From a virus: a stretch of DNA of 64,000 nt. Positions 3,830 through 35,737 of the stretch are shown one piece after another. The notes beneath the pieces are model-generated. The model did not search any database. It saw nothing but the letters and a program-made list of their open reading frames with translations, and was not told where the DNA came from. The stretch lies in IMG/VR virus record IMGVR_UViG_3300045988_182866; one strand, given 5' to 3'. Both the position numbers and the translations under genes were made by a program. Each line of letters opens with the position of its first letter. Positions within the stretch are counted from its first letter, which is position 1.

Positions 3830-4735
3830 CTATAATTTTTCTCTAATTTTCTGGAGGTGTTCAGATATTTCTTTTTTAATGGTTTCTGCATTAGTTTTCC
3901 ATTGGCTGTCCCAAACTTCAATTAAAGTGATTCTGGCATCTTTACAAAGTTGCCTTTTATTTTCATGATAGCCAGGTTCTTTTTCTTCATGTATTTTATG
4001 CCAGTATTCGCCATTATATTCAAGGGCAAGTTTTAATTCAGGAAGATAAATATCCAATTCTTTTCGACCAATAAATTTTCTTGTATTTTCGAGAATTTCT
4101 CCAGGATAAATTGATTTGATAAAATCGCATAACTCCTTTTCACCCTTAGATTTCTTTTCATGAAGGGCACATTTTAAACATCCCCGCCCAGTTAAGTGAT
4201 TATACGCCATTTGAGCAAATTTACCATGGACAGGACAAATAATAATCACATTTGTTTCTGCATTAATATAAATTGTTTTCGAATAATCGAATTTATGTCC
4301 ATGCACTTTTTGAGCACGGTTAATAAATTCTTTTGTGGTTAAACGCTCCAATCCTACGCAACTTTTGCATCCATGCCCCCTTAAATGATTGATGGGATAT
4401 TGCTGAAAAGGTCCATGAACAGGGCAAATAATAGGTACTTTTGCATGATTATTTTTATAGTTTACTTTAGAATAATCATATTTGTTCCCATGAACCTCTC
4501 TTGCTTTCTTTATAAACTTCTCAGTCGTTAAAGATTTTGCATCAACTGCACATTTAAAACATCCCTGACCTCGTAAATGGGCTCCGGCTCTTTGTTGGAA
4601 AGGTCCATGAACCGGGCAAATAACAGTTATAGAACTATAAGCATTTTTATAATTTACTTCAGAATAATCAAAAAAGTCTCCATGTATTTTTCTAGCCCTG
4701 TCAATAAAAATTTCAGTGGTTATTCTGTTGGGCAT
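3830..4735 (-). CDS. freestanding homing-endonuclease-like protein: 3 tandem zinc-ribbon repeats + C-terminal Vsr/DUF559-like PD-(D/E)xK nuclease domain (paralog 1 of 5)
   Basis: 301 aa. Repeats of HGxKYDYSKVNYKN...ICPVHGPFQQ...HLRGxGCxxC. C-terminus KELDIYLPELKLALEYNGEYWH matches the Vsr-type (I/F)xxDGxxWH core. Paralogous to 6412..7503, 24661..26190, 35717..36814 and 40559..41908. Confidence 0.55.
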   Translation of the reverse strand: MPNRITTEIFIDRARKIHGDFFDYSEVNYKNAYSSITVICPVHGPFQQRAGAHLRGQGCFKCAVDAKSLTTEKFIKKAREVHGNKYDYSKVNYKNNHAKVPIICPVHGPFQQYPINHLRGHGCKSCVGLERLTTKEFINRAQKVHGHKFDYSKTIYINAETNVIIICPVHGKFAQMAYNHLTGRGCLKCALHEKKSKGEKELCDFIKSIYPGEILENTRKFIGRKELDIYLPELKLALEYNGEYWHKIHEEKEPGYHENKRQLCKDARITLIEVWDSQWKTNAETIKKEISEHLQKIREKL

Positions 4736-4810: not shown

Positions 4811-6415
4811 TCACTTTTCAGATTGTTCATCAACCAAGAATGTTTCTGTTGTTAGAATCAAACCTGCCGATGCAGCGGCGTTTTCAATTGCGCAACGACA
4901 TACACTAAATGGATCAATAATTCCCGCTTCTAACATGTCTACTAACTTTTGCGTCTTAATATCAAACCCGATACTGCCTTTAGCTTTTGCAACCTTTTCG
5001 ATGATAACATCCGGTCGTTCAACTCCGGCATTCTCAAGAAGAGTCTTAAGAGGAATATCAAGAACCTTTCGCATTAAGTTAACACCGGCATTAAAAGATT
5101 CATCTCCTGTTTCAAACTTAATAGACTTGTTTTCTTTAATCTTAGCGAGAACAGATCCTCCTCCTGGAATAACTCCGGATCGTAAAGCCGCTTGACAGGC
5201 ACACACCGCATCGTCTACACGATCCTTAATTTCATTTAATTCAGATTCAGAATTACCTCCGATATTAAGAACACATACTCCTTGGGCAAGCTTGGCAATT
5301 CGCTTATTAAGCACATCTTCTTCCCAGGAACCAGGACTGCAATTATCTCGTTCCTCTTTAAGCAAATCAATATGTTCTTTAAGCCTTTGAGGATTTCCTC
5401 CGCCTTTTAAGAAAGTTGTATATCGTTTATCACAAACAATCTTTTCACAGGTGGCAAAATCTTCCTCTCTAATAGAATTAAAATCACGTGAAAGAAGTTC
5501 AGTAAAATATGTACCCCCTAAAGTAATTTCAAGATCTTCCATTTCTCTCTTCATGCCGTCTCCATATCCGGGACACTTAATGGCACAAATGTTAATAATG
5601 CCTTTAATCTTATTAATGACAAGAGTTTGAAGAACTTCGGATTCAATATCCGGAGCGATAATAAACAAAGGCCTTCCACGAAGTTCTTTAGTATTAAAGA
5701 CCTTTTGAAGAATAGGCATAATTTGTTGATTATTCGTCAATTTAATTCCGGATAAAAGAATTAAGGGATTTTCAAGAATACATTCTTGTTTAGTCGTATT
5801 ATTGACAAAATAAGAACTCATCCAGCCTCGAGGAACTCGTAAACCTGCAATAAACTGGGAAGAAGATTCATTACTCCTGCTGTCATTAATAGTAATGGAA
5901 CCATCCAAACCTACTTTTTCAACAGCTTCAGAAACAAGATGTGCAATTTCTTTATCCCAGTTGGTAGAAACTAAAGCAATTTGGTGAATCTGTTCTGGAG
6001 AACATTCCTGCTTAATATTTTCTTTAATATAGTTGGCAATTGTCTTTGCCGCTGAAATAACTCCGCGTTGAATTAAAATCGGATTATAACCTGTTTCAAT
6101 CAGCTTCATGCCTTCAGATGCAATAGCCCCAGTGAGGATTGCGCTGGTACTGGTCCCATCACCAGCCTGGTGCGCTGATTGCTCGGATGCTTGACGAATA
6201 ATATCTGCACCCATTTTTTCAAGTACATCAGGCGGATTTACATGACGAGCTACTGTAACGCCGTCTTTTGTAATATATGTCGCATTACCCATTCGATATA
6301 TTACATTTCTGCCGCCAGGCCCGAGCGTCGAAGAAACTGCATTAGCAAGTTTCTTTACACCATTAAGCAGTTTCTTCCTGCCTTCATTTCCCATATAAAT
6401 GTTTTGTTGAATCAT
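4811..6415 (-). CDS. groEL: GroEL-like group I chaperonin (Hsp60/Cpn60 family), phage-encoded
   Basis: 534 aa. Diagnostic GroEL motifs: GPGGRNVIY (GroEL GPKGRNVVL), AGDGTSTS (GroEL AGDGTTTA), and the C-terminal equatorial-domain pattern. No GroES-like co-chaperonin ORF is adjacent. Confidence 0.85.
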   Translation of the reverse strand: MIQQNIYMGNEGRKKLLNGVKKLANAVSSTLGPGGRNVIYRMGNATYITKDGVTVARHVNPPDVLEKMGADIIRQASEQSAHQAGDGTSTSAILTGAIASEGMKLIETGYNPILIQRGVISAAKTIANYIKENIKQECSPEQIHQIALVSTNWDKEIAHLVSEAVEKVGLDGSITINDSRSNESSSQFIAGLRVPRGWMSSYFVNNTTKQECILENPLILLSGIKLTNNQQIMPILQKVFNTKELRGRPLFIIAPDIESEVLQTLVINKIKGIINICAIKCPGYGDGMKREMEDLEITLGGTYFTELLSRDFNSIREEDFATCEKIVCDKRYTTFLKGGGNPQRLKEHIDLLKEERDNCSPGSWEEDVLNKRIAKLAQGVCVLNIGGNSESELNEIKDRVDDAVCACQAALRSGVIPGGGSVLAKIKENKSIKFETGDESFNAGVNLMRKVLDIPLKTLLENAGVERPDVIIEKVAKAKGSIGFDIKTQKLVDMLEAGIIDPFSVCRCAIENAAASAGLILTTETFLVDEQSEK

Positions 6416-7503
6416 GATTTACAATTATTATAGCATGTTTCTTTGATAAACTTTTTTAATTTTTCCTTATTCTTTCGCCACTGAGTATCTAAAATTTCTA
6501 TTAATTTTATACCTTTTTTCTCACAATCTTTTTTCTTTTGAACATGATAGCCTGGATATTTTTCTTCCTTTAACTTATGATGGTAATCACCGTTGCATTC
6601 AAAGGCTAGATTTAATTCAGGAAGATAAACATCAAGTTCTTTTTTTCCAATAATATCTCTTGGGTTTTCTTGAACCTCGCCTGGATAAATTGATTTAATA
6701 TATTGACAAAGTTCTATTTCACCTTTAGATCTTTTTGATGCCGCTAAGCATTTAGGGCAACCGCTTCCGCGTAGATGCGTATTGGGCAACTGTAAAAATG
6801 GGCCATGTTTTTTACAAGTTATAATAATTTTTGTTTTTGCATTTTTATAAGCTACCAAAGAATAATCATACTTGTCTCCATGAGTAGCTCTAGCTTTTTC
6901 TATAAATTCTTCAATAGTTCTCTTATTATTTCCGGCACAAAATGGGCAGCCGGAGCCTGAAAAATGCTTATCAGGGCGTTGTTCAAAAACTCCATGTATG
7001 GGACATATAATTTTTACTTTTGTTCTTTTATTTTTATAAATTACTAAAGAATAATCATATTTGGTTCCATGAACTTCAATAAATCTTTTTCTAATCTCTT
7101 CCTCAGTTAAAAACTGATTTTTAATTGCACATTTTTTACATCCTTTTCCTATTAAATGGCTTGATGGATCTTGCTTAAGGGTACAACCACATTTATTACA
7201 TTTTATGATTACCTCGGTTGTTGAATTTATATAATTAACTAAAGAATAATCATATCGGCCTTTCCCATGAATTTCTTCAGCTTTTTCTATAAATTCTTCT
7301 GTAGTCCTGTTAAATCCTTTACATTTAGGACAACCATGGCCCATTAAATGAATGTTGGGAATTTGCTCAAAGTAGCCATGTATGGGACAAAATATTTTAA
7401 TTAATGTTTTTGTGTTAAAATATACAACTTCAGAATAACCATACTTATTGCCATGTATTTCAATAGCTTTTTTAATAAACCCTTTAGTTGTTAATCTTTT
7501 CAC
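6412..7503 (-). CDS. freestanding homing-endonuclease-like protein: 4 zinc-ribbon repeats + Vsr/DUF559-like nuclease domain (paralog 2 of 5)
   Basis: 363 aa. Repeats IHGNKYGYSEVVYFN...CPIHGYFEQ...HLMGHGCPKC. C-terminus KELDVYLPELNLAFECNGDYHH. Overlaps the chaperonin start by 4 nt (ATGA). Confidence 0.55.
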   Translation of the reverse strand: MKRLTTKGFIKKAIEIHGNKYGYSEVVYFNTKTLIKIFCPIHGYFEQIPNIHLMGHGCPKCKGFNRTTEEFIEKAEEIHGKGRYDYSLVNYINSTTEVIIKCNKCGCTLKQDPSSHLIGKGCKKCAIKNQFLTEEEIRKRFIEVHGTKYDYSLVIYKNKRTKVKIICPIHGVFEQRPDKHFSGSGCPFCAGNNKRTIEEFIEKARATHGDKYDYSLVAYKNAKTKIIITCKKHGPFLQLPNTHLRGSGCPKCLAASKRSKGEIELCQYIKSIYPGEVQENPRDIIGKKELDVYLPELNLAFECNGDYHHKLKEEKYPGYHVQKKKDCEKKGIKLIEILDTQWRKNKEKLKKFIKETCYNNCKS

Positions 7504-8145: not shown

Positions 8146-9195
8146 TTAATTACCAGCAGGTTTAAAATCTGCAATATTCAGAACCTTAAACAAACCATCG
8201 TTTTGATTAGCTCCTCCCATAATCAACATTGAAGGAAGTTTAATATCTTTAAAAGATTCAAAAAACTTAATTCGTGCATAATTACTTCCCATTGCTGCAT
8301 TCAATTCTCGAATTGCTTCAGCTTCAAGCTTCTTACCTTGAGCTTCTGCGGTCTTCATAGCAAGAAGAGCTTCTGCTTCATTTTTCTTTTGAGCAAGCAT
8401 GGCCAAAGACTCTTGTTCTCGGCGATACCTTGCAGCATCAGATTCAGCCTTAGCCTGAAGAAGTTTACCTTGAGCTTCTGCAGCCATCTTATTGGCAATT
8501 GCCCGGCCTTCTGCATTAGCAATCTCTTCGGAACGCTTTGCAATTTCAAGCTGGGTAGCCTGGCGTTCATATTCCTGAGTAGCCTCAACCTTCTTAGTAA
8601 TACCAAGAGTCACCGATTCAGGTGGAATAGTGGAACCAATAGTTACACTTTCAACAATAAATGGAGTGCCATTAAGTTGCTTCTTAAGGTTAGTTTCTAC
8701 CATCTTGGTGATTTCCGGAATCCTAGAAGGAGCTTCTAGACCTTTAAACTTAGCAATAGCAGATCGTACTTCGGTACGGAAAGGTTGCTGAATAAATGAA
8801 GCGTAAGCATCTTGAGCAATAGCTTCCGGGCATCGAGCTGTTTCAGAGATAGCTCCATAATTTTCAACAAATTCCTTTACTTTTTCACTGTCGATACGAT
8901 AAACAAGATAAGATTCAGCCTTCATCTTAAGCTGGTCCGAACTACGAACATCATCAAAAGTTTCAGTCTGAGTATAAGGAGTTACGCAAATCTTAATAGA
9001 ATTCTGCCTCCATACCATACCTGTACTACCGGGTCCTTTAATTACTTGCTTAAATTCCTTCGAACCAAATATAGGTTCGGAATAAACATAACCTGCGTAA
9101 CCGCCATCGATTTTTTCATTTGAAAAATTAACGGCAAAAATAATAGCCGCAACAACGGCAATAATTAGAAATAGAGCTGCAAAAAAATCCTTCAT
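8146..9195 (-). CDS. SPFH/band-7 (stomatin/prohibitin/flotillin/HflK-C) family membrane protein
   Basis: 349 aa. N-terminal TM helix FFAALFLIIAVVAAIIFAV, then an SPFH-like core, then an Ala/Glu-rich coiled coil (EAEALLAMKTAEAQGKKLEAEAI) typical of HflK/HflC/YdjI-type proteins. Confidence 0.6.
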   Translation of the reverse strand: MKDFFAALFLIIAVVAAIIFAVNFSNEKIDGGYAGYVYSEPIFGSKEFKQVIKGPGSTGMVWRQNSIKICVTPYTQTETFDDVRSSDQLKMKAESYLVYRIDSEKVKEFVENYGAISETARCPEAIAQDAYASFIQQPFRTEVRSAIAKFKGLEAPSRIPEITKMVETNLKKQLNGTPFIVESVTIGSTIPPESVTLGITKKVEATQEYERQATQLEIAKRSEEIANAEGRAIANKMAAEAQGKLLQAKAESDAARYRREQESLAMLAQKKNEAEALLAMKTAEAQGKKLEAEAIRELNAAMGSNYARIKFFESFKDIKLPSMLIMGGANQNDGLFKVLNIADFKPAGN

Positions 9196-9690: not shown

Positions 9691-10257
9691 TTATATTTGA
9701 TATGTGATTAAATCCGTTGTCAATTTATTAATTGTTTCAATAAATGCTACCGGGATAGCTTCTTCAATTTTTAGTAAAAGTAATTTTAAGTTCTCATTAA
9801 CTTTAGGGCCAAATAAAATATATTGAGTATCATTGTTTAAATCGACAGAATAAGCTTTAAAATTTGCTTGATTAAAACTTATAACTGTAAATCTATCAAC
9901 AATTAAATTGTTTTTTAAAAAAGTCTCTCTGACAAAATTCTCAAGATCTCTGGAATAAATTCCTCTATGATGATCTACTTCTACTTCAATTAAAAAAGAT
10001 TGATTTATATCAATAAAGTGGTCAAATGAAGCTATTCCTAAAGTATTCCACCAAGTAAAATACCTTTCATTAAGGCCATTCTTTACTTTAATGATTTTGC
10101 TTTTATTGGCAAATGGAGAGTAAATTGTAAAAGCATGTTTAAAATCTTCAATAGTCCTGTAAGCAGGATCTTCAAAGAATTCTTCTTCAAATAAATCGAC
10201 TTGGTAAGTTTTACCATTACCAAGTCGATCAATAAGTTTGAAAACTGCTTGTTTCAT
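9691..10257 (-). CDS. hypothetical protein (between PspA-like and SPFH genes)
   Basis: 188-aa ORF; start/stop abuts the PspA-like gene (10257). Confidence 0.35.
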   Translation of the reverse strand: MKQAVFKLIDRLGNGKTYQVDLFEEEFFEDPAYRTIEDFKHAFTIYSPFANKSKIIKVKNGLNERYFTWWNTLGIASFDHFIDINQSFLIEVEVDHHRGIYSRDLENFVRETFLKNNLIVDRFTVISFNQANFKAYSVDLNNDTQYILFGPKVNENLKLLLLKIEEAIPVAFIETINKLTTDLITYQI

Positions 10258-10931
10258 TAACTCTCAGCAACACGAGCCTTCAAACGGGCAAGAGCATCTT
10301 CTTTAGATACAGATTCAATAAATTCATTCATTTCATCTTTAGTATCATTAAGAGTTCCGCTTACTTCAATTGAAGCATCGGCCTTAGAATCTTTCTTTTC
10401 AAGAATCTTATCTACATCTGCCAGCATCCCGTTAAAATCATTTTTGCCTGAAATATTCGCAATATCCTTCAAAGCAGCAAGATCTTCCTTCATAGCAGCA
10501 GATGCAGCCTTCAACTTAATCTGTTCAATTCGAGAATCATAAGAATTAAGAACAACTCTTTGATTACTAATCAACTTATCATAAGTTGCAGTTGCTTCTT
10601 CAAGAGCCTTTTCAGCCATATCAAGCTGTGCCTTAGTATTTTCATATTGAAGAGAAAATTCGGCGGCAAGACTTTCCTTGCCATTCTTAAGAGCAAGAAT
10701 GGCTCGTTCATTGAGAACTTGAACCTTTTGCTTAAGACTCTTTACATTTTTAGTCATGTTGTTTACTGTAGTCTTTACAGCAACCAATCGTTCATAAATT
10801 TCTTGCTCGGCCTTGCTCTTTTCATCTTCGAGAGACGCAATAAGAGCATCAACATTCTTACTTTCAAGTGAATTTACACCAAGATTAAGCCAGCCAAACA
10901 AAACACGTCCCAAACGTCCAATAATTCTCAT
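10257..10931 (-). CDS. pspA: PspA/IM30/Vipp1-family protein (phage shock protein A-like, bacterial ESCRT-III superfamily)
   Basis: 224 aa, all coiled coil. N-terminus MRIIGRLGRVLFGWLNLGVNSLESKNVDA parallels PspA [27 protein letters not shown]; heptad-rich body parallels PspA helices. Confidence 0.6.
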   Translation of the reverse strand: MRIIGRLGRVLFGWLNLGVNSLESKNVDALIASLEDEKSKAEQEIYERLVAVKTTVNNMTKNVKSLKQKVQVLNERAILALKNGKESLAAEFSLQYENTKAQLDMAEKALEEATATYDKLISNQRVVLNSYDSRIEQIKLKAASAAMKEDLAALKDIANISGKNDFNGMLADVDKILEKKDSKADASIEVSGTLNDTKDEMNEFIESVSKEDALARLKARVAES

Positions 10932-11234: not shown

Positions 11235-11250
11235 TTTAAAGGTGATTAAT
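11235..11250 (-). promoter_or_regulatory. conserved 16-mer TTTAAAGGTGATTAAT (minus-strand ATTAATCACCTTTAAA) 27 nt upstream of a minus-strand start codon; exact second copy at 23485..23500
   Basis: Exact 16-nt duplicate found by eye. Both copies sit exactly 27 nt upstream of a minus-strand ATG (11207 and 23457). Confidence 0.35.
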
Positions 11251-11710
11251 TTCCTGCGTATTCAACTAAAAGAACAGAAATATCATGCTTTGTTCGAAAA
11301 TTATACAAAAGATTTTCAAATTCTTTTGGTTTTACTCGTCCTATACCGCATCCCAAAAAAGGCATTACAACAGTATTAAGATGATGAGTGTTCATAACTT
11401 CAAACAAATCGCAAAGAGACAAAGAAATATCTCCCAAATTTGCTATTGAACCAGGATAAAACATGGTTGGAACATTGGCAATCATTTTCCAATTATCTTC
11501 ATCGGACAAATAAAAATAATGGCCTTTACCAATATTAACCATTTTAGAATTACAAGAGTTCTGATAACTCCAGTACATTTCAGGAAATTTATCGGCAAAA
11601 GCTTTTGCAACTCCTGCTCCCATTACTCCGATACAATTGACGGCATTGCAAATTACATCCGCCTTTGTATCAAAGATATTTCCTTTTGTTTTAATAACTT
11701 TAAGAGACAT
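11246..11710 (-). CDS. macro domain protein (ADP-ribose binding / ADP-ribosyl hydrolase fold)
   Basis: 154 aa. ICNAVNCIGVMGAGVAKAF matches the macro-domain NAAN...GGGV signature. Confidence 0.6.
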   Translation of the reverse strand: MSLKVIKTKGNIFDTKADVICNAVNCIGVMGAGVAKAFADKFPEMYWSYQNSCNSKMVNIGKGHYFYLSDEDNWKMIANVPTMFYPGSIANLGDISLSLCDLFEVMNTHHLNTVVMPFLGCGIGRVKPKEFENLLYNFRTKHDISVLLVEYAGN

Positions 11711-13714: not shown

Positions 13715-14857
13715 TTATTTTCTAATTGCTTTAAACTTCCCAAACCTAGGTACATTAAGATCAGGAGTTAAATCCTGATAAATGATAGTTGCCATCTTGC
13801 CTTCATAAAGTGCTCGATTTTTGAAAAATTCACGTTTAGCAGGTTCATCCCAGCCTTTACCCATACCTACTGAAAATTGAACTCCATTTTCATCTTCACA
13901 AATTATTTGTGCTGCTTGTCCGGCATGATTACCCCGTCCATCAAGAATTTGAACAATCTTATATTCGCTATCTTGAAATCGCTTATACTTTACAAGATTA
14001 GAAGAACGTCCTTCATCATAAGTCATCTCGGGATTACGAAGCATAATTCCTTCAAATCCATTTTCGATTGCATCATCTAAATAAGCTTCTACCTCTTCAA
14101 AAGAATTAACTTCAAATTGAGTAACACCCAAACTATACTTTAATGTAATATTATTAATCTGAAGGGGATAAAGATGATGACAACATTGATTAAGCTTGGT
14201 ATGCTTATTACGGTCCTTATAAGGAATCTTTGTATTTCGTTCCGCAAAATCAAAAGCATGAAATTTAATAATGCTTTTTGTTTTTGCCAGGAATTCTTCA
14301 GTAATATTCTTAGTTCTAGAAATCAAAGATGCAACTTGATTAAAATCATCTCTAAGTTCATGAGAATATAATTCTCCATCAATAATTGCATTAGGATTAG
14401 CAATGAAATAAGGTTTCAACTCCTCAAATACATGAGGGCATGAAAGAATCTCATGATGAGTCCTTGAAAACATTCCTTTAGCACAAATATAACATCTAAA
14501 GCCATCTAATTTGGCAGAAGCAAATTGAGGAAATTTAATAAATTTCTTTCTTGCTTTAAATTCTTTGGCAAGAGTTACTTCAAATTGTTTTTCAGTTGGA
14601 ATAGTATCTTGAAACCCCCTTTTCCTTTGCTTTTCAATTCGAGATTGTACTTCTAAAGCACATTGCTGTTCAGGAGTAGTAGCATTAGAACGACCTTCAT
14701 TCTTACCTTCACAATAAGTCGGTTCAGTCGTAGTAATAGCTCCCCCTACTCGACCAGAAGACATAGTATACCAATTACTGGAATCGTCATAAGATATACT
14801 CCATGTAATAGGATTGCCTTTCTTATCGAGATTAAACAATTCGAAAGATTTAATCAT
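13715..14857 (-). CDS. ATP-dependent DNA ligase
   Basis: 380 aa. Motif I KxDGxR = AKLDGFRCY; motif IV EGIMLRNP; motif V LVKYKRF. Confidence 0.85.
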   Translation of the reverse strand: MIKSFELFNLDKKGNPITWSISYDDSSNWYTMSSGRVGGAITTTEPTYCEGKNEGRSNATTPEQQCALEVQSRIEKQRKRGFQDTIPTEKQFEVTLAKEFKARKKFIKFPQFASAKLDGFRCYICAKGMFSRTHHEILSCPHVFEELKPYFIANPNAIIDGELYSHELRDDFNQVASLISRTKNITEEFLAKTKSIIKFHAFDFAERNTKIPYKDRNKHTKLNQCCHHLYPLQINNITLKYSLGVTQFEVNSFEEVEAYLDDAIENGFEGIMLRNPEMTYDEGRSSNLVKYKRFQDSEYKIVQILDGRGNHAGQAAQIICEDENGVQFSVGMGKGWDEPAKREFFKNRALYEGKMATIIYQDLTPDLNVPRFGKFKAIRK

Positions 14858-14895
14858 TATTTTTTAATAAATTATTTCTTAAAAATCGATGGTGT

Positions 14896-15219
14896 TTAAA
14901 CTATCTCCTTAAAGTCAAAAGTCTCATCATCCTCATTGATAAATGAAACAAGATGGTAAGTTTCATCAGAAAATCCGTCTGAAACTTTTACTTTAATTTC
15001 CCACCCTTCCCCGAACAATCCTCCATAAGTACCCCAGAAAATTTGAGAAGCACAAAATTTAGCAGCATCCGCCATATTTTGGATATTGTTAGCTTTAATA
15101 TCATATTTGTTAACAATCAAATAACCTTGTTTCTTAACTTTTCCGTCATCCCAAAGTTCTTTAGCAATGCAAACATAATTTGCATCCTTAAGAAGTGACA
15201 TATTAATCTTTTTACTCAT
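14896..15219 (-). CDS. hypothetical protein
   Basis: 107-aa ORF overlapping the NTase gene start by 8 nt. Confidence 0.35.
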   Translation of the reverse strand: MSKKINMSLLKDANYVCIAKELWDDGKVKKQGYLIVNKYDIKANNIQNMADAAKFCASQIFWGTYGGLFGEGWEIKVKVSDGFSDETYHLVSFINEDDETFDFKEIV

Positions 15220-16258
15220 AAAAATTTAAAATATAATTCTTAAAAAATTCCTTATCAGGTTTTTCAGGTAATTTTGACTTATTAAACAATTCTTTTAATT
15301 CTAAAGATTTTTCATTTGCCAACTTCATTAGATAATCATATTCAAAATCGCCATTTCTAATCTTTAAAAGAAATTGTCTTAAAATAGGATTACATTTAAC
15401 CGTTAATGTTCCATCTTTTAAAATCTCTCTGCAAAGACTCATAAGACGGAAAAGATGCATCATATTCTTTGTATCATAAAAGGTTTTATCAGACGTCTTT
15501 TCTACATTTGTTGCATATCTTTTTTCATTCCTTTTAGCAACCCAATCCCAGTATTCTTTATATTCTTTACAATATTTCTGATAAGCCGGAATATTAATAA
15601 TCACATAGGCTGCGGTATTTGCATTTTTTGGAACCGATGTAATATTAATGTTCATGTCTAAAATAGGTCCGGCTTTACAAGGATGATTATAAAGTACATA
15701 AACATTTTCAGCATGATTCATTTTACAAAGAGATAAATTAGTCTCTTTAATACCACAGCATTCCAACCAGTCTCGATAAGGAATAGAATGTTGATAGCAC
15801 AACACCCAGCTAAAATCTTTTAACGTTTTTCTTTCTTTAGGAAAAGGATTAGCTGACTTTTTATTAACGTTTTTGGCCTTTAAAATTTGAGATTCAGCAT
15901 AAGCTCCAAAAGTATAAAAACATTTCTTGGAAAGAACTTTTTCAATTAGTGGATCAAATCGTTTATCCCTAATTTTAACATGTTCAGGATCAGTAGTAAA
16001 CAAAACTTCAAGAGCCGAAGGAGTATTCTTTCTTAGTTGTTCAAGGAAGAATCCAATCTCGGTATAGATAGTATCATTATTATTCTCCTGGATTACCTTT
16101 TCATATTCACCAACTAATATATCTTTAACAGGATGAGCAAAAACACCTCTAATATCAACATCCGAATCTTTAGTATTCAACCCATAAGAAATACTTCCCG
16201 CAATAACGCTCAATAATACTTCTTTACCCTTCAGAGGTCCTTCTCCACTTAAACACAT
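15212..16258 (-). CDS. Pol-beta-superfamily nucleotidyltransferase-fold protein
   Basis: 348 aa. The N-terminal GS-x9-DxD motif (LSVIAGSISYGLNTKDSDVDIRGVF) is the minimal NTase signature. Substrate unknown. Confidence 0.5.
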   Translation of the reverse strand: MCLSGEGPLKGKEVLLSVIAGSISYGLNTKDSDVDIRGVFAHPVKDILVGEYEKVIQENNNDTIYTEIGFFLEQLRKNTPSALEVLFTTDPEHVKIRDKRFDPLIEKVLSKKCFYTFGAYAESQILKAKNVNKKSANPFPKERKTLKDFSWVLCYQHSIPYRDWLECCGIKETNLSLCKMNHAENVYVLYNHPCKAGPILDMNINITSVPKNANTAAYVIINIPAYQKYCKEYKEYWDWVAKRNEKRYATNVEKTSDKTFYDTKNMMHLFRLMSLCREILKDGTLTVKCNPILRQFLLKIRNGDFEYDYLMKLANEKSLELKELFNKSKLPEKPDKEFFKNYILNFYE

Positions 16259-16314: not shown

Positions 16315-16349
16315 GAGAGAAATGCTTGAAAAATAAAGCATTTCTCTCA
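16315..16349 (-). terminator. hairpin terminator (13-bp perfect stem gagagaaatgctt / aagcatttctctc, 9-nt loop)
   Basis: Inverted repeat read directly; T-run on the minus strand; 3' of minus-strand gene 16377..16817. Confidence 0.45.
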
Positions 16350-16376: not shown

Positions 16377-16817
16377 TTACGCTTTAGGGACGACTTTTAC
16401 CGGACGTCCGGTCTTAATCGCCAATTGAATGCCAGAGTCAATAGCAGACTTGATAGATTCTAAAGCCATCATCAATTTTTCATTATCATGAATCTTTGCC
16501 ATATTTTCGTCATATACATTCATGATTTCAGAAACAACCTTATCTACAATTTGCTTCGAGAACAATTTAGACAAAGCTTCTGTCAGCTTGGCCTGAAGTT
16601 CATCCCGGGTAACTTGATCGTTCTTAATAATAGTTCCAATAATGTCAGAAGCCTTTTGGAAAGCCGCCAATGTTTCAGCATCCTTTCGAATAGACGAGGA
16701 CACAACACATGCTCCGGAACAAACCATCAAATCTTCTTTTCCTTGCTTATCTAAAAGCATATTTTGAGAACAGGAACACATAATTCCCCCTACCAGCAAT
16801 GATAAAATAATTTTCAT
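16377..16817 (-). CDS. putative secreted protein / lipoprotein
   Basis: 146 aa. N-terminal signal-like MKIILSLLVGGIMCSCSQ, with Cys after the hydrophobic core. Confidence 0.35.
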   Translation of the reverse strand: MKIILSLLVGGIMCSCSQNMLLDKQGKEDLMVCSGACVVSSSIRKDAETLAAFQKASDIIGTIIKNDQVTRDELQAKLTEALSKLFSKQIVDKVVSEIMNVYDENMAKIHDNEKLMMALESIKSAIDSGIQLAIKTGRPVKVVPKA

Positions 16818-16827
16818 ATAATTTTAA

Positions 16828-17664
16828 TTAATTTACTTCTTCAAGAACTTCAAATCTATTTGTGCGAATCTTTCCATCCTTGAAAGAGATATAATGAAGA
16901 TCTTTAAAAAATATTCTTACTTTGATAATTTTTTCAGAACAATATACTTTGGCATTTATATAATCCCAAACACTTAATCCAAAAGAATTATCTACATCAT
17001 CCTTGTCGCATATATCCGTATATGTGTTGCCTACTTCATATGTTATACGTGATGTCATAGTAGAAGTATTATCTTTCTTAATTCCCTTATAAGCTATAAA
17101 AGAATGTTCATCGTAATCTTCATACTTAATACCTGATGTTTTTTCCGCAAATCTTAGTGTTTCCTTCTTATTTTCTTCAGGCTCATGAGCTTTATTATAT
17201 TCTCTCCAGAGCGTTTCTGCCAAAAACTCGGGCTTGTTGTCATAAGCTTGAAGCAATTCTAAAATAGTCAACAAAGTTTCTTTATCTAAAGTTTCATCTT
17301 GAACAATAATAGCTTTGGCAATTTTTAAAGCAATGTTAAATTGTGCAATAGCCGTTAAACCACTGTTGTTAATCTTTGCAAAAAACTTATAAAGAAAAGG
17401 AACACAAAATAATTGATAGTTTACATCAGATTTATAATAAGATTTATAAAACTTTTCTATAAACTTTGTTCTAAATGCTTCATTTTCAAATCTTGGATTT
17501 ATATGATAAAGAATAATACTTTCAAATAATCCATATTTGTCAAGCAAAGAAAAAATCTGATTGTCATTTAAACAATCAGATTTTTTAGAAGCACAAAATA
17601 ATCTTGCAAAATATTCGTTAGATGTACAATCTTGAAATGTTTTATTTTCAAAAAGGAAATCCAT
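16828..17664 (-). CDS. hypothetical protein
   Basis: 278-aa ORF. Confidence 0.35.
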   Translation of the reverse strand: MDFLFENKTFQDCTSNEYFARLFCASKKSDCLNDNQIFSLLDKYGLFESIILYHINPRFENEAFRTKFIEKFYKSYYKSDVNYQLFCVPFLYKFFAKINNSGLTAIAQFNIALKIAKAIIVQDETLDKETLLTILELLQAYDNKPEFLAETLWREYNKAHEPEENKKETLRFAEKTSGIKYEDYDEHSFIAYKGIKKDNTSTMTSRITYEVGNTYTDICDKDDVDNSFGLSVWDYINAKVYCSEKIIKVRIFFKDLHYISFKDGKIRTNRFEVLEEVN

Positions 17665-17670
17665 ATATTA

Positions 17671-18357
17671 TTAACGAAGAGTAGAATCGATAATATCTTT
17701 TGTTCTTGGAGGAAGCCATCCTTCTGGCTTAATTACATCAAAAGTACTTCCGCGCTTTCCGACATTATCTTTAGTTGCACGAATCTTTTGCATGTTCCTG
17801 GCCTGAACATCATTCCACAAAGCCTGGGCAGGCATGTTCATGAGATTTAACAAGCCCGACGCAACATAAATCAGATCGGTTAAACCATCTGAAATTTCAT
17901 AAATATTACCTTCCTTGTGCGCTTTATCAATTTCTGCAAGTTCTTCATAAAGATGGCCGATCTTTACTTTCATTTCCTCTTCAGGGAGAATACCAAATTG
18001 ATCCTTTCTCCAAAGACCATATTTTTGCTGAAAAGCCATTGTATCATCAAAAATATTAGTACTCCAAGTATTCATCAAAGAATGATATTCTTGTGCGTCA
18101 AGATCTTCATCATTAATATATTCAAAATAACCAGTTAACATTACTTCCACTAAAGTAGATGGAATCCATGTACGAATAGTCATTTGCTTATTTTCTTCAA
18201 TATTTTTAATGGGATCTCCTTCCAGCATAGGAGTCTTTGCTCCATTGCCCCATAGATAAAATTGAAGGTCGCCATCTTCAGTAACAAAATTACTGCTCTT
18301 CCTGTTTACCACATATCGATTGTGGTCCTGCTCGCAATGAAAAATTAGATATTTCAT
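17671..18357 (-). CDS. MazG-like all-alpha NTP pyrophosphohydrolase domain protein (candidate dCTPase/dUTPase-type nucleotide sanitiser)
   Basis: 228 aa. C-terminal EELAEIDKAH...EISDGLTDLIYVASGLLNL fits the MazG/HisE EExxE...E..D..DLL motif. Confidence 0.5.
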   Translation of the reverse strand: MKYLIFHCEQDHNRYVVNRKSSNFVTEDGDLQFYLWGNGAKTPMLEGDPIKNIEENKQMTIRTWIPSTLVEVMLTGYFEYINDEDLDAQEYHSLMNTWSTNIFDDTMAFQQKYGLWRKDQFGILPEEEMKVKIGHLYEELAEIDKAHKEGNIYEISDGLTDLIYVASGLLNLMNMPAQALWNDVQARNMQKIRATKDNVGKRGSTFDVIKPEGWLPPRTKDIIDSTLR

Positions 18358-18363
18358 ATAAAA

Positions 18364-18870
18364 TTAAAGTGTTTTAAGATAATCATATCGAACTACCTTA
18401 TGTTGAAGGTCAGGGTGACATGACTTAAAAGTTAGATAAATGTCCTGATACTTGTCATAAATTTTTGACATAACATCAACATTAGAAATATATTCTTCTT
18501 TAACCTTCATGCAATCGACATAGTTTTTAAGGTAAATCCCCTTATCCATAGGAAGACAAAAAATAATAAGGTCAAAAGCATTTAATAGGTCATTAATAAA
18601 ATCTTTACCTCCATCCATGTCCGGACAAAAATGAATACGCGGTTCATTTCGAACTACTGATCCATAAACATATTCTGAAATAAGATGACGATCAATAATT
18701 ACATTATCATGTTCTTTTAAGAACTCAAAAGACTGCTTAATTTGATCTGCATATTCAAAGTCATCCTCATTGTAAGAATAGTGAATATATTCGCATTTTA
18801 AAGCTTCTTGCAAAACTTTTGCCAAATGTGTTTTCCCGCCTGAATCGGGACCATCCAAATAAATTTTCAT
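18364..18870 (-). CDS. P-loop deoxynucleotide (dNMP) kinase-like protein
   Basis: 168 aa. N-terminal Walker A: IYLDGPDSGGKTHLAKVL. Confidence 0.5.
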   Translation of the reverse strand: MKIYLDGPDSGGKTHLAKVLQEALKCEYIHYSYNEDDFEYADQIKQSFEFLKEHDNVIIDRHLISEYVYGSVVRNEPRIHFCPDMDGGKDFINDLLNAFDLIIFCLPMDKGIYLKNYVDCMKVKEEYISNVDVMSKIYDKYQDIYLTFKSCHPDLQHKVVRYDYLKTL

Positions 18871-18871
18871 A

Positions 18872-19138
18872 TTAATCTTGAGAGGTAAAATTATAACTTA
18901 TATTATTTTCTAATAGAATCTTAACAAATATTTTTATAATTCCATCAACTTCTTTTCGTTCTCTTGAAGAGAAAATAATAGAATTTTTAAAAATAACAAG
19001 ATGGTCTGTTTCATTATCATCTTTCTTAAAGATAATAGAATTATCATCTTCATGTTCAAGATAATATAAATTTTGATCTTCTGTTAAAAGAAAAATCTCT
19101 TTTTCATCTTGTTCAAAATTAAAGATTTGATATTTCAT
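18872..19138 (-). CDS. hypothetical protein
   Basis: 88-aa ORF between the kinase and the ThyA-family gene. Confidence 0.3.
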   Translation of the reverse strand: MKYQIFNFEQDEKEIFLLTEDQNLYYLEHEDDNSIIFKKDDNETDHLVIFKNSIIFSSRERKEVDGIIKIFVKILLENNISYNFTSQD

Positions 19139-20064
19139 ACAGCTACAGGCATATTAATAATTTTAGCTGGCTTATAATTTTCAATAGAAAACCAATCTAA
19201 TTGAAAATCTTCTAATTTTTCTACATAATCAGGGCCGGAATAAATTAAATTTGGAGGTACATTAATTGTTGAAGAAATCATTTCTCTTACTCCCTCCATT
19301 TGATTTACATAAATGTGACTATCTCCAAATAACCCATAAACAGTTCCCACTTCATGATTTGTCATTTTAGACATCATAAAAAGAAGCAAAGAATAAAGGC
19401 AAATATCAAAAGGAACTCCAACAGGCATATCACAAGATCTTTGAATCCATCGAAGATGCAAGCGCCGTTTACCATTTTCCAAAGATTCAGAATAAAACTC
19501 TCCGCCCCAATGGCAAGGGGGAAGTGCCATATCATTTAGTTCTCCCGGATTCCACATTGAAAATACTAATCGTCTATCATCAGGATTAGTTCTGAGAGTA
19601 TTAATGATATTTTGAATTTGATTAATAGTCGCCCGTTCTAAAATATCATTTTTAGAAACATTAAAATAACCGCAATCCCATTCCATTAATTGCTTGCCAT
19701 ATACAGGACCCAAATCACCTTTTTCATCAGCCCATTTATCCCAGTAATGTACATTTTCATTTTTAAGATACATTACATTATTCCTATCAGTATTAGGAAT
19801 AGGATTTTGAGCTTGAAGAATGCCAAGAATCCAGAATAATTCTACTAATGCCCCTTTAAAAAAGATTTTTCGCATTGTAATTAATGGAAAATAACCTTTG
19901 GTCAGTAATTTTCCAGAATTCCAGCTAGTATTAAAAATACTTTTAGTATCAATACCCGTTCTATTAGATTTAAGAACCCCCTTCTCAAGGATCTCCAGCA
20001 AAATCCTGCGATAACAACTCTCAGGCTTGTGTAAGAAGCCTATTTCCTTTATATCTCCACTCAT
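19135..20064 (-). CDS. thymidylate synthase (ThyA) family enzyme with Asp at the dUMP-specificity Asn position: predicted deoxycytidylate 5-methyltransferase / 5-hydroxymethyltransferase
   Basis: 309 aa. Strong ThyA similarity (WDKWADEKGDLGPVYGKQ, MALPPCHWG active-site Cys, QRSCDMPVGVPFDICLYSLL). In E. coli ThyA the last segment is [20 protein letters not shown]; Asn177 (PFN) is replaced by Asp (PFD), as in T4 gp42 dCMP hydroxymethylase and engineered N177D dCMP methylases. Confidence 0.75.
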   Translation of the reverse strand: MSGDIKEIGFLHKPESCYRRILLEILEKGVLKSNRTGIDTKSIFNTSWNSGKLLTKGYFPLITMRKIFFKGALVELFWILGILQAQNPIPNTDRNNVMYLKNENVHYWDKWADEKGDLGPVYGKQLMEWDCGYFNVSKNDILERATINQIQNIINTLRTNPDDRRLVFSMWNPGELNDMALPPCHWGGEFYSESLENGKRRLHLRWIQRSCDMPVGVPFDICLYSLLLFMMSKMTNHEVGTVYGLFGDSHIYVNQMEGVREMISSTINVPPNLIYSGPDYVEKLEDFQLDWFSIENYKPAKIINMPVAV

Positions 20065-20087
20065 TTCTTTTTATCTTATCAGTATTC

Positions 20088-20636
20088 TCAATTATCCATG
20101 GTGTTTTGCCATCTTATAAATTTCTCAATAGCGAGCCTGTAATCACCTACTGTATGAATTTCTAATTGAGCTGGAATAAATTTCCAAAGCAGATAAAGAC
20201 TGCTAATATCTGAAAAATAGGTATCATGATAAATGTCCATCAATTCTTCAATATAAAAAATAGAACGGTAGACAACTTTGGAATATTTTAAAAGCGTATC
20301 ATAAAGCATACTTCCGCCAATGCAAACCACCTCTTCTTCGGAATCTTTAAATTTATCTATAAAATCGCATATATTAATTTTAATAACATTATCAGGCAGA
20401 TTAAGAGGCAAATCCCGGGAAGTAATAATAAAATGATTTAAGCGATTTTTTAAAGGTTTAAAATTCAAACTTTCAAAAGTGTTATAACCCATCACAACAC
20501 TTTTTCCTTCGGTAACATTTTTAAAATGTTCCATATCTCTTCTAGCTATTTCTTTATATTTTTGACCTTTCCAGGGAAGAGAATTTTTATGTCCAATAGA
20601 ACCATTGGGAAGCATTGCAAAAATTGAAGAAATCAT
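20088..20636 (-). CDS. frd: dihydrofolate reductase
   Basis: 182 aa. MISSIFAMLPNGSIGHKNSLPWK...VVMGYNTFESL aligns with E. coli FolA [22 protein letters not shown]...VIMGRHTWESI. Confidence 0.85.
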   Translation of the reverse strand: MISSIFAMLPNGSIGHKNSLPWKGQKYKEIARRDMEHFKNVTEGKSVVMGYNTFESLNFKPLKNRLNHFIITSRDLPLNLPDNVIKINICDFIDKFKDSEEEVVCIGGSMLYDTLLKYSKVVYRSIFYIEELMDIYHDTYFSDISSLYLLWKFIPAQLEIHTVGDYRLAIEKFIRWQNTMDN

Positions 20637-20704
20637 TGTTTTTTAATATTTTATTACTTTTTTAGGCTCAGCTATAATCTTAAATAAACTTATATTTTAA
20701 AAAG

Positions 20705-21346
20705 ATGAATAGCTATAGTTACGATGAGGAGAAAGATAAATGGGAGGCAGAATTAGTTGCAACTAAGGACCGTATAGCTAGACGAATTTATTCAACAAAA
20801 GATTATTACTATTGTTGCTGGAAAATGGCAAGGCATGGATTATTAATTCTTGATTACCGGGGGTTAATTATAGATGTTAACCCGTATTTTTGTGAAAAAA
20901 TTGGATATTCTCGAGAAGAATTATTGGGAAAAAATATTAATGATTTTTGTGTTAAAGCTGAAGATCTTCATGCTTCTGATTCTATTAATATTTTAACTTT
21001 ACTTCAATCGATTAATCAACAAAGTACAAATCAATGCGAATTAAAAACTAAAGAAACTAAATTATTTCGTGTAAGATGGGTCGCAACCAGAATTCCAGCA
21101 TCATTATCTAGTCCATTCTCACATAGTTTAGTATGTGTATACTTTTTAAGTGAAACTAATTATTCTAAAATTATTGATGAGATTAATAAAATTAAAAAGA
21201 AAGAATCGAATATCCTTTGGAAGATACTCGATTCTCTTTGGGCAAAATGCTTAATTTTTTTAATTATTATTCTTACAGCTATTGGTGGAAGTTTACCAGA
21301 TATTGTCTCAAAGATAATATCTTTATTTGCAAATTCTCCACTTTAA
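20705..21346 (+). CDS. PAS-domain protein with C-terminal transmembrane anchor
   Basis: 213 aa. PAS-like core LILDYRGLIIDVNPYFCEKIGYSREELLGKNINDF; C-terminal hydrophobic helix CLIFLIIILTAIGGSL. Confidence 0.4.
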   Translation: MNSYSYDEEKDKWEAELVATKDRIARRIYSTKDYYYCCWKMARHGLLILDYRGLIIDVNPYFCEKIGYSREELLGKNINDFCVKAEDLHASDSINILTLLQSINQQSTNQCELKTKETKLFRVRWVATRIPASLSSPFSHSLVCVYFLSETNYSKIIDEINKIKKKESNILWKILDSLWAKCLIFLIIILTAIGGSLPDIVSKIISLFANSPL

Positions 21347-21873: not shown

Positions 21874-22593
21874 TCATTGAGAGGTATTTATATTTTTCTT
21901 ATAATGATTAAGCATCAGAATAATCTCATGCTTCATAAAATTTGTTGGAATAACTTCCCAATTTCCGGTATTCATATCTAACCAGAAAATGAGCAGTCCT
22001 TTGCATTTCTTCTTAGTCAGAATTTCATTCATAAATCCATAAATTCCTAACTGAAGAGCATATGTATTAAATTCACATTCAGATAAATGATTTAATGGAG
22101 CTTTCATCCATTTACCATAATCTGAACCAAATCTAAATTTTTTATTTGTTTTAAAATCGCCAATGATGAATGTACCATCTTCTAATTCAAATAGAAGGTC
22201 ACCAGTACCGGCAATTTTAAAATCATGATTATATAACAACTTTTCAGAATATATTTCTGAAATATTTGGAATATATTTTTCTACTTTTAATTGAAATTTT
22301 TCAATGATCTTCTTATACAAAGGATCAACTTCTCCATACTTTACATAATTTTCAAGAGCAGCATGAAAATCAGTACCTCTATCACATGCAAAATTTTTAT
22401 TATCTTCCCATTCTTTAAGAATTTCTTCTTGACTTACTCCTCTTTTCTTTGCAACCCATTTAGAAATATTTTCTGCATCAAACTTTTCCTTATATCGCCC
22501 TAATAATTTAGAAACTGAGCAATATTCTTCATTTGTTTCAATATTAATATATTGATGAGTATCTTCTAAAAATTTAATCGGGATATAGCTCAT
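21874..22593 (-). CDS. PD-(D/E)xK nuclease of the Cas4/RecB/lambda-exonuclease (YqaJ) type
   Basis: 239 aa. Motif II GTGDLLFE; motif III IGDFKT; QxxxY motif TYALQLGIYGF. Confidence 0.5.
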   Translation of the reverse strand: MSYIPIKFLEDTHQYINIETNEEYCSVSKLLGRYKEKFDAENISKWVAKKRGVSQEEILKEWEDNKNFACDRGTDFHAALENYVKYGEVDPLYKKIIEKFQLKVEKYIPNISEIYSEKLLYNHDFKIAGTGDLLFELEDGTFIIGDFKTNKKFRFGSDYGKWMKAPLNHLSECEFNTYALQLGIYGFMNEILTKKKCKGLLIFWLDMNTGNWEVIPTNFMKHEIILMLNHYKKNINTSQ

Positions 22594-23110
22594 TTAATTC
22601 TTTAATTTTCTTTTCAATCATGTAAATTAAATTTCTAATTAATCTTGAACTTTTCCAAGGAAGATTAGAATATTCAAATATATTTTTCTTTTTAATATTT
22701 TCTAAACTTATGAAGGTGTCACACATATAATCTGTCTCATCAGGAGAAAATAGATTAATAATTTCTCCTGAAAGGTAACCTATCGTTATAGTCGGATGAA
22801 AATCATCAAATGTATATTGAGATGATGTTATCAACTGTAATATTTCATTTACTGTGAGAGGATATTGAGTATTATCATCTTTTAACAAAAACATTAAAGA
22901 TAAAAATTGTATTTTACCTCTAATAAATTGTTTCCAAATTTCATATGGATTATCTGTATTAAAACATTTTTTAAGAATGGAAGTATTGATGAAAAATTTA
23001 TTATAAACATTCCATTTAGATCCACATTTTTTAGAAAAGATTTCGTTTTGAACATAGTAATCCAATATATCTTGGAACTTTTCTACTGTATTTTTAAATT
23101 TTTCGTCCAT
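22574..23110 (-). CDS. hypothetical protein
   Basis: 178-aa ORF. Confidence 0.3.
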   Translation of the reverse strand: MDEKFKNTVEKFQDILDYYVQNEIFSKKCGSKWNVYNKFFINTSILKKCFNTDNPYEIWKQFIRGKIQFLSLMFLLKDDNTQYPLTVNEILQLITSSQYTFDDFHPTITIGYLSGEIINLFSPDETDYMCDTFISLENIKKKNIFEYSNLPWKSSRLIRNLIYMIEKKIKELNELYPD

Positions 23111-33793: not shown

Positions 33794-34402
33794 TTAATTA
33801 ATCCATCTAATTATTGGTTCATTTTTTATCTCCTTTTGCCACACATACATACAATAAGCAGCCGCACCACTATTTTTAAAATTATCGGTTCCTTTACCGC
33901 AACCTTGCCTGTTTACATATACATATACATATTTTGGTGGATATTTTTTAAAAAAATTATAACGTTTGGCTGATTCAAGAAAGGTGAGTTTCATAAACAT
34001 AATGACTAAACCATTATTTTTAACAGTTTTTATTGCTTTTTCTGTAATTTCAACTGCATATCTGTAAGGAGGATTTGTAAAAATACAATCAAATTGATTA
34101 TCCCATTTATTAGTTTTTAAAAAATCAATACCAGTTTCTTCCCCATATCCTCTGTCAATTAAATCAGAAGAATAAACTGAATATCCATTTTCTTTTAATA
34201 TTTTGGATATCGAACCTATACCACAGCATGGTTCTAAAATATTATTAGGAATTATTAAATTAGTATTTTTAGCTGCTTTTAAAAATAATTTTATTGATTC
34301 AGGATGAGTACAATAAAAATCATATTCTTCTACTTCAATCTCCTTTTTTCGATGATTTACTGAATAAAATCCTGAATTTCCGCCTGTCCAATCTTTAATC
34401 AT
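33794..34402 (-). CDS. orphan DNA amino-methyltransferase (N6-adenine or N4-cytosine; NPPY class)
   Basis: 202 aa. Motif I NNILEPCCGIGSISKIL (AdoMet binding); motif IV IFTNPPYR. No adjacent restriction endonuclease gene. Confidence 0.7.
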   Translation of the reverse strand: MIKDWTGGNSGFYSVNHRKKEIEVEEYDFYCTHPESIKLFLKAAKNTNLIIPNNILEPCCGIGSISKILKENGYSVYSSDLIDRGYGEETGIDFLKTNKWDNQFDCIFTNPPYRYAVEITEKAIKTVKNNGLVIMFMKLTFLESAKRYNFFKKYPPKYVYVYVNRQGCGKGTDNFKNSGAAAYCMYVWQKEIKNEPIIRWIN

Positions 34403-35701: not shown

Positions 35702-35737
35702 AAAAAAGCTGAATCATTAATTTGATTCAGCTTTTTT
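35702..35737. terminator. conserved hairpin family, copy A (aaaaaagctgaatca-ttaatt-tgattcagctttttt)
   Basis: Perfect stem flanked by A-run and T-run; lies between convergent genes and overlaps the last codons of 35717..36814. Confidence 0.5.

Follow-up and report, generated by a model that had tools for sequence, protein, structure and literature searches.

We analysed a ThyA-family gene (19135-20064, minus strand) in 64,000 nucleotides (nt) of viral DNA, IMG/VR record IMGVR_UViG_3300045988_182866, the whole of which we refer to as the window. The encoded protein carries Asp at the position equivalent to Asn177 of Escherichia coli ThyA. Taken together, its fold, active-site residues, operon, homology and pattern of co-occurrence indicate that it probably methylates deoxycytidine monophosphate (dCMP), which would give 5-methylcytosine (5mC) in the phage DNA, and we predict it to be a dCMP C5-methyltransferase.

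The open reading frame (ORF) starts with ATG and encodes a full-length protein of 309 amino acids (aa). The Pfam model PF00303 (Thymidylat_synt) spans residues 18-309 with an E-value of 1.2e-75 (254.6 bits; cut-off 24.3), and the peptides WDKWADEKGDLGPVYGKQ, LPPCH and QRSCDMPVGVPFDICLY, which the original prediction had quoted, are all found in the translation. An AlphaFold2 model (pLDDT 94.3) has E. coli ThyA as its best Foldseek match (TM 0.95 on the target), and the other top matches are canonical thymidylate synthases too. Pfam, PHROG and the NCBIfam equivalog TIGR03284 (score 188, cut-off 108) all label the protein as thymidylate synthase. The other six of the seven ThyA-type NCBIfam equivalogs, which are PRK01827 and PRK13821 models, remain under their curated cut-offs (for example 223.7 against 327).

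Canonical thymidylate synthase (EC 2.1.1.45) requires Asn177 to read O4 and N3-H of uracil, and this residue is the established determinant for deoxyuridine monophosphate (dUMP) [PMC8670742, PMC13326640]; the window enzyme has Asp instead. In HMMER alignments with three solved thymidylate synthases (2TSC included), QRSCDMPVGVPFDI aligns without gaps with the Asn177 segment of E. coli ThyA. Two independent MAFFT alignments, with positions counted as in E. coli ThyA, place Asp in the same column, which confirms the substitution first proposed from the sequence alone. The residue is Asp220 of the protein and its codon is GAT (19405-19407, minus strand), which a single G-to-A transition would turn into the Asn codon AAT.

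The remainder of the active site is that of ThyA. Among 24 catalytic, nucleotide-binding and folate-binding positions aligned with E. coli ThyA, N177D and a conservative I264V (the C-terminal residue) are the only changes. Identical residues are R21, E58, W80, W83, Y94, R126, R127, L143, C146, H147, Q165-D169, G173, H207, Y209 and V262-A263, and the C-terminus is full-length and ends in PVAV. The catalytic Cys146 and the phosphate-binding Arg21, Arg166, Arg126' and Arg127' of ThyA are all present; the folate-binding loop, noted earlier as conserved and thymidylate-synthase-like, is there as well, with an intact folate site. Other differences concern clade-specific insertions and second-shell residues (I79Y, A144P, V170M, F171P and L172V).

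For viral ThyA homologues a product code has been published (PMC13326640). At position 177 Asn goes with dUMP and Asp with dCMP; at position 143 a bulky hydrophobic residue goes with methyl and Asp or Glu with hydroxymethyl; at position 169 Asp goes with folate dependence and Asn is the sign of a flavin-dependent 5-hydroxy-dCMP synthase. Our own alignment contains controls that conform to this code. E. coli ThyA (product dTMP, thymidine monophosphate) reads L/D/N at 143/169/177 and has the C-terminal lid, the Xp12 thymidylate synthase homologue (5-methyl-dCMP) reads N/D/D with a different C-terminus, and T4 gp42 (5-hydroxymethyl-dCMP) and RB69 gp48 (5-hydroxy-dCMP) read D/D/D and E/N/D, respectively, both with the lid absent. 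The window enzyme reads L/D/D, with the lid present, and by the published code is therefore predicted to be a 5-methyl-dCMP synthase; the residues by which such synthases are recognized (Asp177, Asp169 and a non-acidic residue at 143) occur here as D177, D169 and L143.

The gene is part of a minus-strand operon in the order dihydrofolate reductase (DHFR), the ThyA homologue, an 88-aa ORF, a kinase and a MazG-type gene, with gaps of 0 to 23 nt. The DHFR gene (20088-20636; PF00186 DHFR_1, E-value 9.8e-24; NCBIfam DHFR models at about 1e-12) opens the unit. The original prediction placed it directly next to the ThyA gene on the same strand, which is correct, and downstream, which is not: since both genes lie on the minus strand, DHFR is upstream, its stop codon 23 nt ahead of the ThyA start. 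The kinase (18364-18870) is a P-loop deoxynucleoside monophosphate kinase of the thymidylate-kinase type (phrog_761 'thymidylate kinase', E-value 5e-12; weak PF02223 and TIGR00041 matches), with Walker A (GPDSGGKT) and DRH motifs in its translation and a weak resemblance to the SPbeta YorR structure 2AXP. The last of these genes (17671-18357) encodes a MazG/PRA-PH-type nucleoside triphosphate pyrophosphohydrolase (PF01503, E-value 2.7e-8; phrog_671 'nucleotide pyrophosphohydrolase', E-value 1e-20) with an acidic motif EELAE...EISD. Its closest solved relative is the MazG-like DR2231, and its core is 41% identical (E-value 1e-19) to the pyrophosphohydrolase adjoining the Xp12 dCMP methylase. 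On our analysis, DHFR, the Asp-form ThyA, the kinase and the MazG-type protein make up the set of enzymes needed to replace cytosine before replication.

The following route would connect these enzymes. Cys184 (Cys146 in E. coli) would attack C6 of dCMP, with Asp220 reading the N3/N4 face of cytosine in place of uracil, after which the methylene of 5,10-methylene-tetrahydrofolate would be transferred to C5. The exocyclic methylene would then be reduced by the folate hydride to yield 5-methyl-dCMP and dihydrofolate, because the active site is expected to be closed and water-excluding as in ThyA (Leu143, Trp80, Trp83 and the C-terminal lid). The co-transcribed DHFR would recycle dihydrofolate to tetrahydrofolate. 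The MazG-type pyrophosphohydrolase, a putative dCTPase, would convert dCTP to dCMP, both feeding the methylase and excluding plain cytosine from the DNA, and the thymidylate-kinase-like protein might phosphorylate 5-methyl-dCMP to the diphosphate, on the way to the triphosphate. The phage polymerase could in this manner build a genome in which cytosine is largely or wholly 5mC, blunting restriction. The substrate and product of the enzyme, the parts played by the two accessory proteins and the make-up of the virion DNA are all inferred.

Homologues were searched among 5.8 billion proteins (a search of 50%-clustered representatives merged the whole subclade of the window enzyme into a single cluster, P0006, and gained little). 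The enzyme falls in a phage-specific ThyA clade with an insertion after helix 3 and the motif MALPPCH...QRS(C/A)DMPIG(I/V)P(Y/F). This clade holds 53 of the 74 sequences in our alignment A1, with Asp at position 177 in 41 and Asn in 12. The 41 Asp forms (metagenomic clusters) range over about 45-96% identity, and within the subclade of the window (P0002-P0024, from 93% down to 52% identity) Asp is found throughout. Judged from these sequences, Asp177 is a residue conserved under selection and no sequence error. Neighbour joining nests the Asn forms within those that have Asp, and since the Asp forms P0066 and P0067 are sister to the Asn form P0068, the switch at position 177 seems to have occurred more than once in the clade; the tree is distance-based, carries no support values and is hence only suggestive.

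The surroundings of these genes were compared as well. A PRA-PH gene lies at most two genes downstream in all four loci of the window subclade (the window, L002, L004 and L012) and in all three Asp-form loci of the sister subclade (L009, L013 and L014), against neither of two loci with only an Asn form (L010 and L015). DHFR is adjacent in each of the four loci of the window subclade (as the DHFR-ThyA pair of L002, L004 and L012) and in none of the three sister loci within 6-7 kb, and was not seen in the Asn-only loci; the DHFR link thus holds in the window subclade and fails in the sister subclade. In a further locus, L011 (7001-9704, Logan contig of SRR21576147), an Asn-form ThyA of the clade is followed by a gp42-like dCMP hydroxymethylase (DEVC...RSNDVVFGFTYD; Asp143, Asp177, no C-terminal lid) and then by PRA-PH, which is a T4-style arrangement. 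As PRA-PH is present in seven of seven Asp-form loci and beside the gp42-like enzyme of L011, and in neither Asn-only locus, the pyrophosphohydrolase tracks the dCMP-specific enzyme, and this matches the published association of PRA-PH with Asp177 found by MetaGPA (PMC8670742). Sister phages appear to use differing cytosine modifications with the same accessory pyrophosphohydrolase.

In phage Xp12 cytosine is wholly replaced by 5mC, and both the Xp12 enzyme and five metagenomic Asp177 enzymes have been shown to make 5-methyl-dC in vivo (bioRxiv 10.1101/2024.12.05.627091). Asp177 ThyA homologues also serve as a marker of cytosine-modified metagenomic phage contigs (PMC8670742). The expectation, voiced in the original prediction, that 5mC made through a ThyA paralogue would be unusual can consequently be abandoned: phages of the Xp12 group (the relatives AXL1, PaMx74, Bosa and DLP4 have a 5-methyl-dCMP synthase) use the same route. 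The mechanism and its marker are already published, and natural examples have been known since Xp12. With Xp12 the window shares the ThyA family, Asp177, Asp169, a non-acidic residue 143, and a DHFR and a MazG-type pyrophosphohydrolase in the cluster. In Xp12 and AXL1, however, pyrophosphohydrolase, thymidylate synthase homologue, dCMP deaminase and DHFR lie side by side, whereas the window has another gene order and a kinase in place of the adjacent deaminase. The phages differ as well (about 200 kb, 31% GC and contractile-tailed against a siphovirus of 60 kb and 67% GC). The window enzyme shares just 21% identity with the Xp12 enzyme and about 36% with E. coli ThyA, values that do not support orthology with the former. 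The Xp12 enzyme has F83, N143, P147, L165, S168 and another C-terminus, at every one of which the window enzyme agrees with canonical ThyA. Because of this low identity and of the divergence of the Xp12 enzyme at positions 83, 143, 147, 165 and 168, the window enzyme looks like a recruitment of a canonical ThyA, with its own Asn-to-Asp switch, independent of the Xp12 lineage.

Another known system is the engineered N177D/N229D thymidylate synthase, which is converted into a dCMP methylase according to its citation in PMC8670742. Both have a canonical scaffold with a single Asn-to-Asp change, and the window enzyme is in effect the natural counterpart, since it retains 23 of the 24 functional positions (I264V counted among them) and differs in specificity only through residue 177; unlike the engineered protein it is natural, conserved by selection, carries clade-specific insertions and sits in a dedicated operon. 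Compared by description with the MetaGPA homologues, the window enzyme has in common Asp177 and PRA-PH genes on the same phage contigs (PMC8670742; bioRxiv 10.1101/2024.12.05.627091), but it keeps His147, which is reported to be replaced in most modified contigs. Members of the published set were moreover selected because a deaminase lies next to them, a gene that the window lacks.

Several observations weigh against dCMP methylation. The rule by which Leu143 separates methyl from hydroxymethyl is a published correlation that does not prove the residue decisive, and in the validated Xp12 enzyme position 143 is Asn instead of Leu. Given the 21% identity to that enzyme, function is here transferred by residue logic and not by orthology. 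DHFR is missing from the three Asp-form sister loci mentioned above. Xp12-type clusters carry a deaminase, yet neither tblastn against the 64 kb window nor Pfam, for those ORFs that were scanned, detected a dCMP or 5-methyl-dCTP deaminase; a relative with 68% identity (L004) has one about 9 kb from the module. Deaminase homologues also occur on the contig of the relative P0012, and none could be assigned to a 199.8 kb contig nearly identical to the window. Finally, the window covers only 64 kb of a genome of about 200 kb (the remaining roughly 136 kb lie outside it), so that a canonical thyA or thyX located elsewhere could account for the DHFR.

One alternative, which we regard as unlikely, is that the enzyme hydroxymethylates dCMP as T4 gp42 does. 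Hydration of the methylene intermediate would then yield 5-hydroxymethyl-dCMP and tetrahydrofolate, with possible subsequent glycosylation. The T4 system does resemble the window in its general composition: gp56 dCTPase, gp42 and the gp1 deoxynucleoside monophosphate kinase correspond to a dCTP-destroying pyrophosphatase, an Asp177 dCMP-modifying homologue and a phage kinase, and in L011 a MazG-type gene accompanies a gp42-like enzyme too. Nonetheless, no similarity to gp42 or gp56 at the BLAST level was found in the window. Residue 143 is Leu, neither Asp (as in gp42) nor Glu, and His147, Gln165 and Cys168 are ThyA-like (Thr, Met and Asn in gp42). In ThyA the final 27 residues close over the folate; they are missing from the T4 hydroxymethylase (PMC5175136; MilA structural paper), which gives hydroxymethyl and tetrahydrofolate (PMC5175136). 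The window enzyme retains this lid. Hydroxymethylases also need no DHFR, because tetrahydrofolate is what they release (PMC5175136), while here a DHFR is co-transcribed. The same DHFR argument for a reductive reaction had been made in the original prediction, whose preference for a methylase over a hydroxymethylase, and hence for 5mC, is probably right in view of Asp177, Leu143, Asp169, the lid, the DHFR and the MazG-type neighbour. In L002 (98-99% identical) a small ORF resembling Glyco_transf_25 lies about 3 kb away and is the reason to keep a small probability on a hydroxymethyl-plus-sugar route; this ORF is not in the window. When about 50 window ORFs were scanned with Pfam and PHROG, neither a glycosyltransferase nor any TET/JBP-type oxygenase, carbamoyltransferase or C5 DNA methyltransferase was found, and a weak match to an Eco57I-like adenine methylase was the sole sign of a modification gene.

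Relaxed specificity is another explanation to which we attach little probability. The enzyme would then methylate both dUMP and dCMP, being the sole thymidylate synthase of the phage as well as its source of 5mC. It is canonical ThyA at all but residue 177, and Asn-form and Asp-form enzymes are closely related within one clade. Moreover, a check for a second thyA or thyX found none within the window, and tblastn found no second thyA, gp42-like enzyme, gp56-like dCTPase or dCMP deaminase below an E-value of 0.1 besides the gene itself. Against this, the engineered N177D/N229D change, as cited in PMC8670742, switches the substrate rather than widening it. dTMP could be supplied by the host and by the remaining genome, and the deaminase of the relatives could give thymidine from 5-methyl-dC nucleotides, as proposed for Xp12 (bioRxiv 10.1101/2024.12.05.627091).

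That the protein is an ordinary thymidylate synthase, with an Asp that is tolerated or erroneous, seems very improbable. It would agree with the Pfam, PHROG and TIGR03284 assignments and with the adjacent DHFR (compare T4 frd-td). It would leave unexplained the Asp in 41 clade members of widely differing identity, the presence of the MazG-type gene in all Asp-form and in neither Asn-only locus, the established role of Asn177 in dUMP recognition and the six ThyA-type models that stay below cut-off. A flavin-dependent 5-hydroxy-dCMP synthase like RB69 gp48, which has Asp177 in common and belongs to a family likewise derived from ThyA homologues (PMC13326640), can practically be dismissed and was rejected because Asp169 is kept, so that the diagnostic D169N (Asn in the gp48 control of the same alignment) is missing; residue 143 is Leu and not Glu, Trp80, Gly173 and Tyr209 (altered in gp48) are kept, and Pfam and PHROG scans found no sugar-nucleotide or arabinosyltransferase genes near the ThyA gene. 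A MilA-type CMP (ribo) hydroxymethylase was rejected as well, given Leu143, the ThyA C-terminus and the retained His207 and Tyr209.

Returning to dCMP methylation as the preferred function, a wider scenario can be put forward tentatively, although it may well not hold in full: an independent and repeatedly flipped Asn-to-Asp switch, with an operon that gives full replacement of cytosine by 5mC in an uncultured group of contractile-tailed phages of about 200 kb, the enzyme perhaps also being the only thymidine-nucleotide route of the phage. Mildly new are the near-minimal natural N177D ThyA lineage, which is not related to the Xp12 enzyme, and its own DHFR-kinase-pyrophosphohydrolase operon in a phage group of this size without a cultured member. 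If the methylase assignment is true, a large, uncultured, low-GC and contractile-tailed lineage joins the phages that incorporate 5mC before replication, and contigs of this lineage recur in public metagenome assemblies. The enzyme would in that case offer a clean model of one-residue retargeting of thymidylate synthase and a possible enzyme source for 5-methyl-dC nucleotides. Automatic annotation calls it thymidylate synthase, a label that residues 143, 169 and 177 correct. The phage DNA may furthermore resist cytosine-sensitive restriction enzymes, and its behaviour in nanopore, bisulfite or enzymatic-conversion analyses may differ from that of ordinary DNA.

The other members of the unit are less informative as to function. 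The 88-aa ORF (18872-19138, minus strand) shares an ATGA overlap with the ThyA gene (translational coupling) and has no match in Pfam or PHROG; it is identical in L002, and in L004 and L009 a small ORF is found at this place. Following the MazG gene after a 6-nt gap, two ORFs of 278 and 146 aa (16377-17664, minus strand) have no assigned function or confident family match in Pfam and PHROG scans and are both kept in L002 and L004. A terminator-like hairpin on the same strand (16315-16348; a 13-bp stem followed by a T run, found as a pattern match in a consensus scan) probably terminates the unit. A promoter scan gave 41 matches against 28 expected and is uninformative at 31% GC. The segments upstream of the ThyA and DHFR starts (20065-20087 and 20637-20665, minus strand) are A/T-rich and lack a purine run of the Shine-Dalgarno kind. 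These starts and the low GC content may be a hint that the host, perhaps one of the Bacteroidota, initiates translation independently of Shine-Dalgarno sequences. Divergent from the operon lies a gene for a PAS-domain protein (20705-21346, plus strand; 213 aa with a hydrophobic C-terminal segment; PF13426, E-value 2e-8), an arrangement that is kept in L002, L004 and L012.

The window is AT-rich (about 31% GC) and encodes a tail sheath, a T4-type large terminase, a neck-protein-like and a gp25-like protein, a clamp loader, an ATP-dependent ligase and a Cpn60 chaperonin. By its genes the phage is a distant T4-type, contractile-tailed phage and only loosely 'T4-like'. The earlier use of that term holds in this distant sense and is too strong in a closer one, because the best cultured match of the large terminase, from Escherichia, Shigella and Salmonella phages of about 150-160 kb, reaches just 33% identity. 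Among cultured phages the closest ThyA is 39% identical to the window enzyme and of the canonical form. A metagenomic contig of 199,788 bp (ENA ERZ27292438 k141_88654) is over part of its length 98-99.8% nucleotide-identical to the window, and the group to which both belong comprises phages of about 200 kb without a cultured member. The sole large difference from this contig lies at 22582-23110 of the window (6780-7484 of L002), where the window has a 178-aa ORF with no assigned function and L002 has a 149-aa Glyco_transf_25-like ORF and a 48-aa ORF.

The chaperonin gene (4811-6415, minus strand) is a phage-encoded member of the Cpn60/GroEL family (PF00118, E-value 1.7e-59). An unusual accessory cluster, kept in L002, comprises SPFH/Band 7, PspA/IM30-like, Macro-domain and RlaP-type nucleotidyltransferase genes (8146-9195, 10257-10931, 11246-11710 and 13715-16258), the last type adjoining the ATP-dependent ligase. 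ARAGORN reports an 88-nt tRNA-Asp(GTC) at 11453-11540 (minus strand), which falls within the Macro-domain ORF and is probably a false positive. A 202-aa ORF (33794-34402, minus strand) shows a weak match to Eco57I-type N6-adenine methyltransferases (E-value 3e-5, just under the Pfam cut-off), which may be a sign that the DNA receives a second modification after replication. Four paralogous ORFs (3830-4735, 6412-7503, 35717-36814 and 40559-41908) contain a DUF4379 treble-clef zinc finger and/or DUF723, one of them with a weak restriction-endonuclease-like match at its C-terminus; dispersed among core genes, they look like mobile genes of the homing-endonuclease type.

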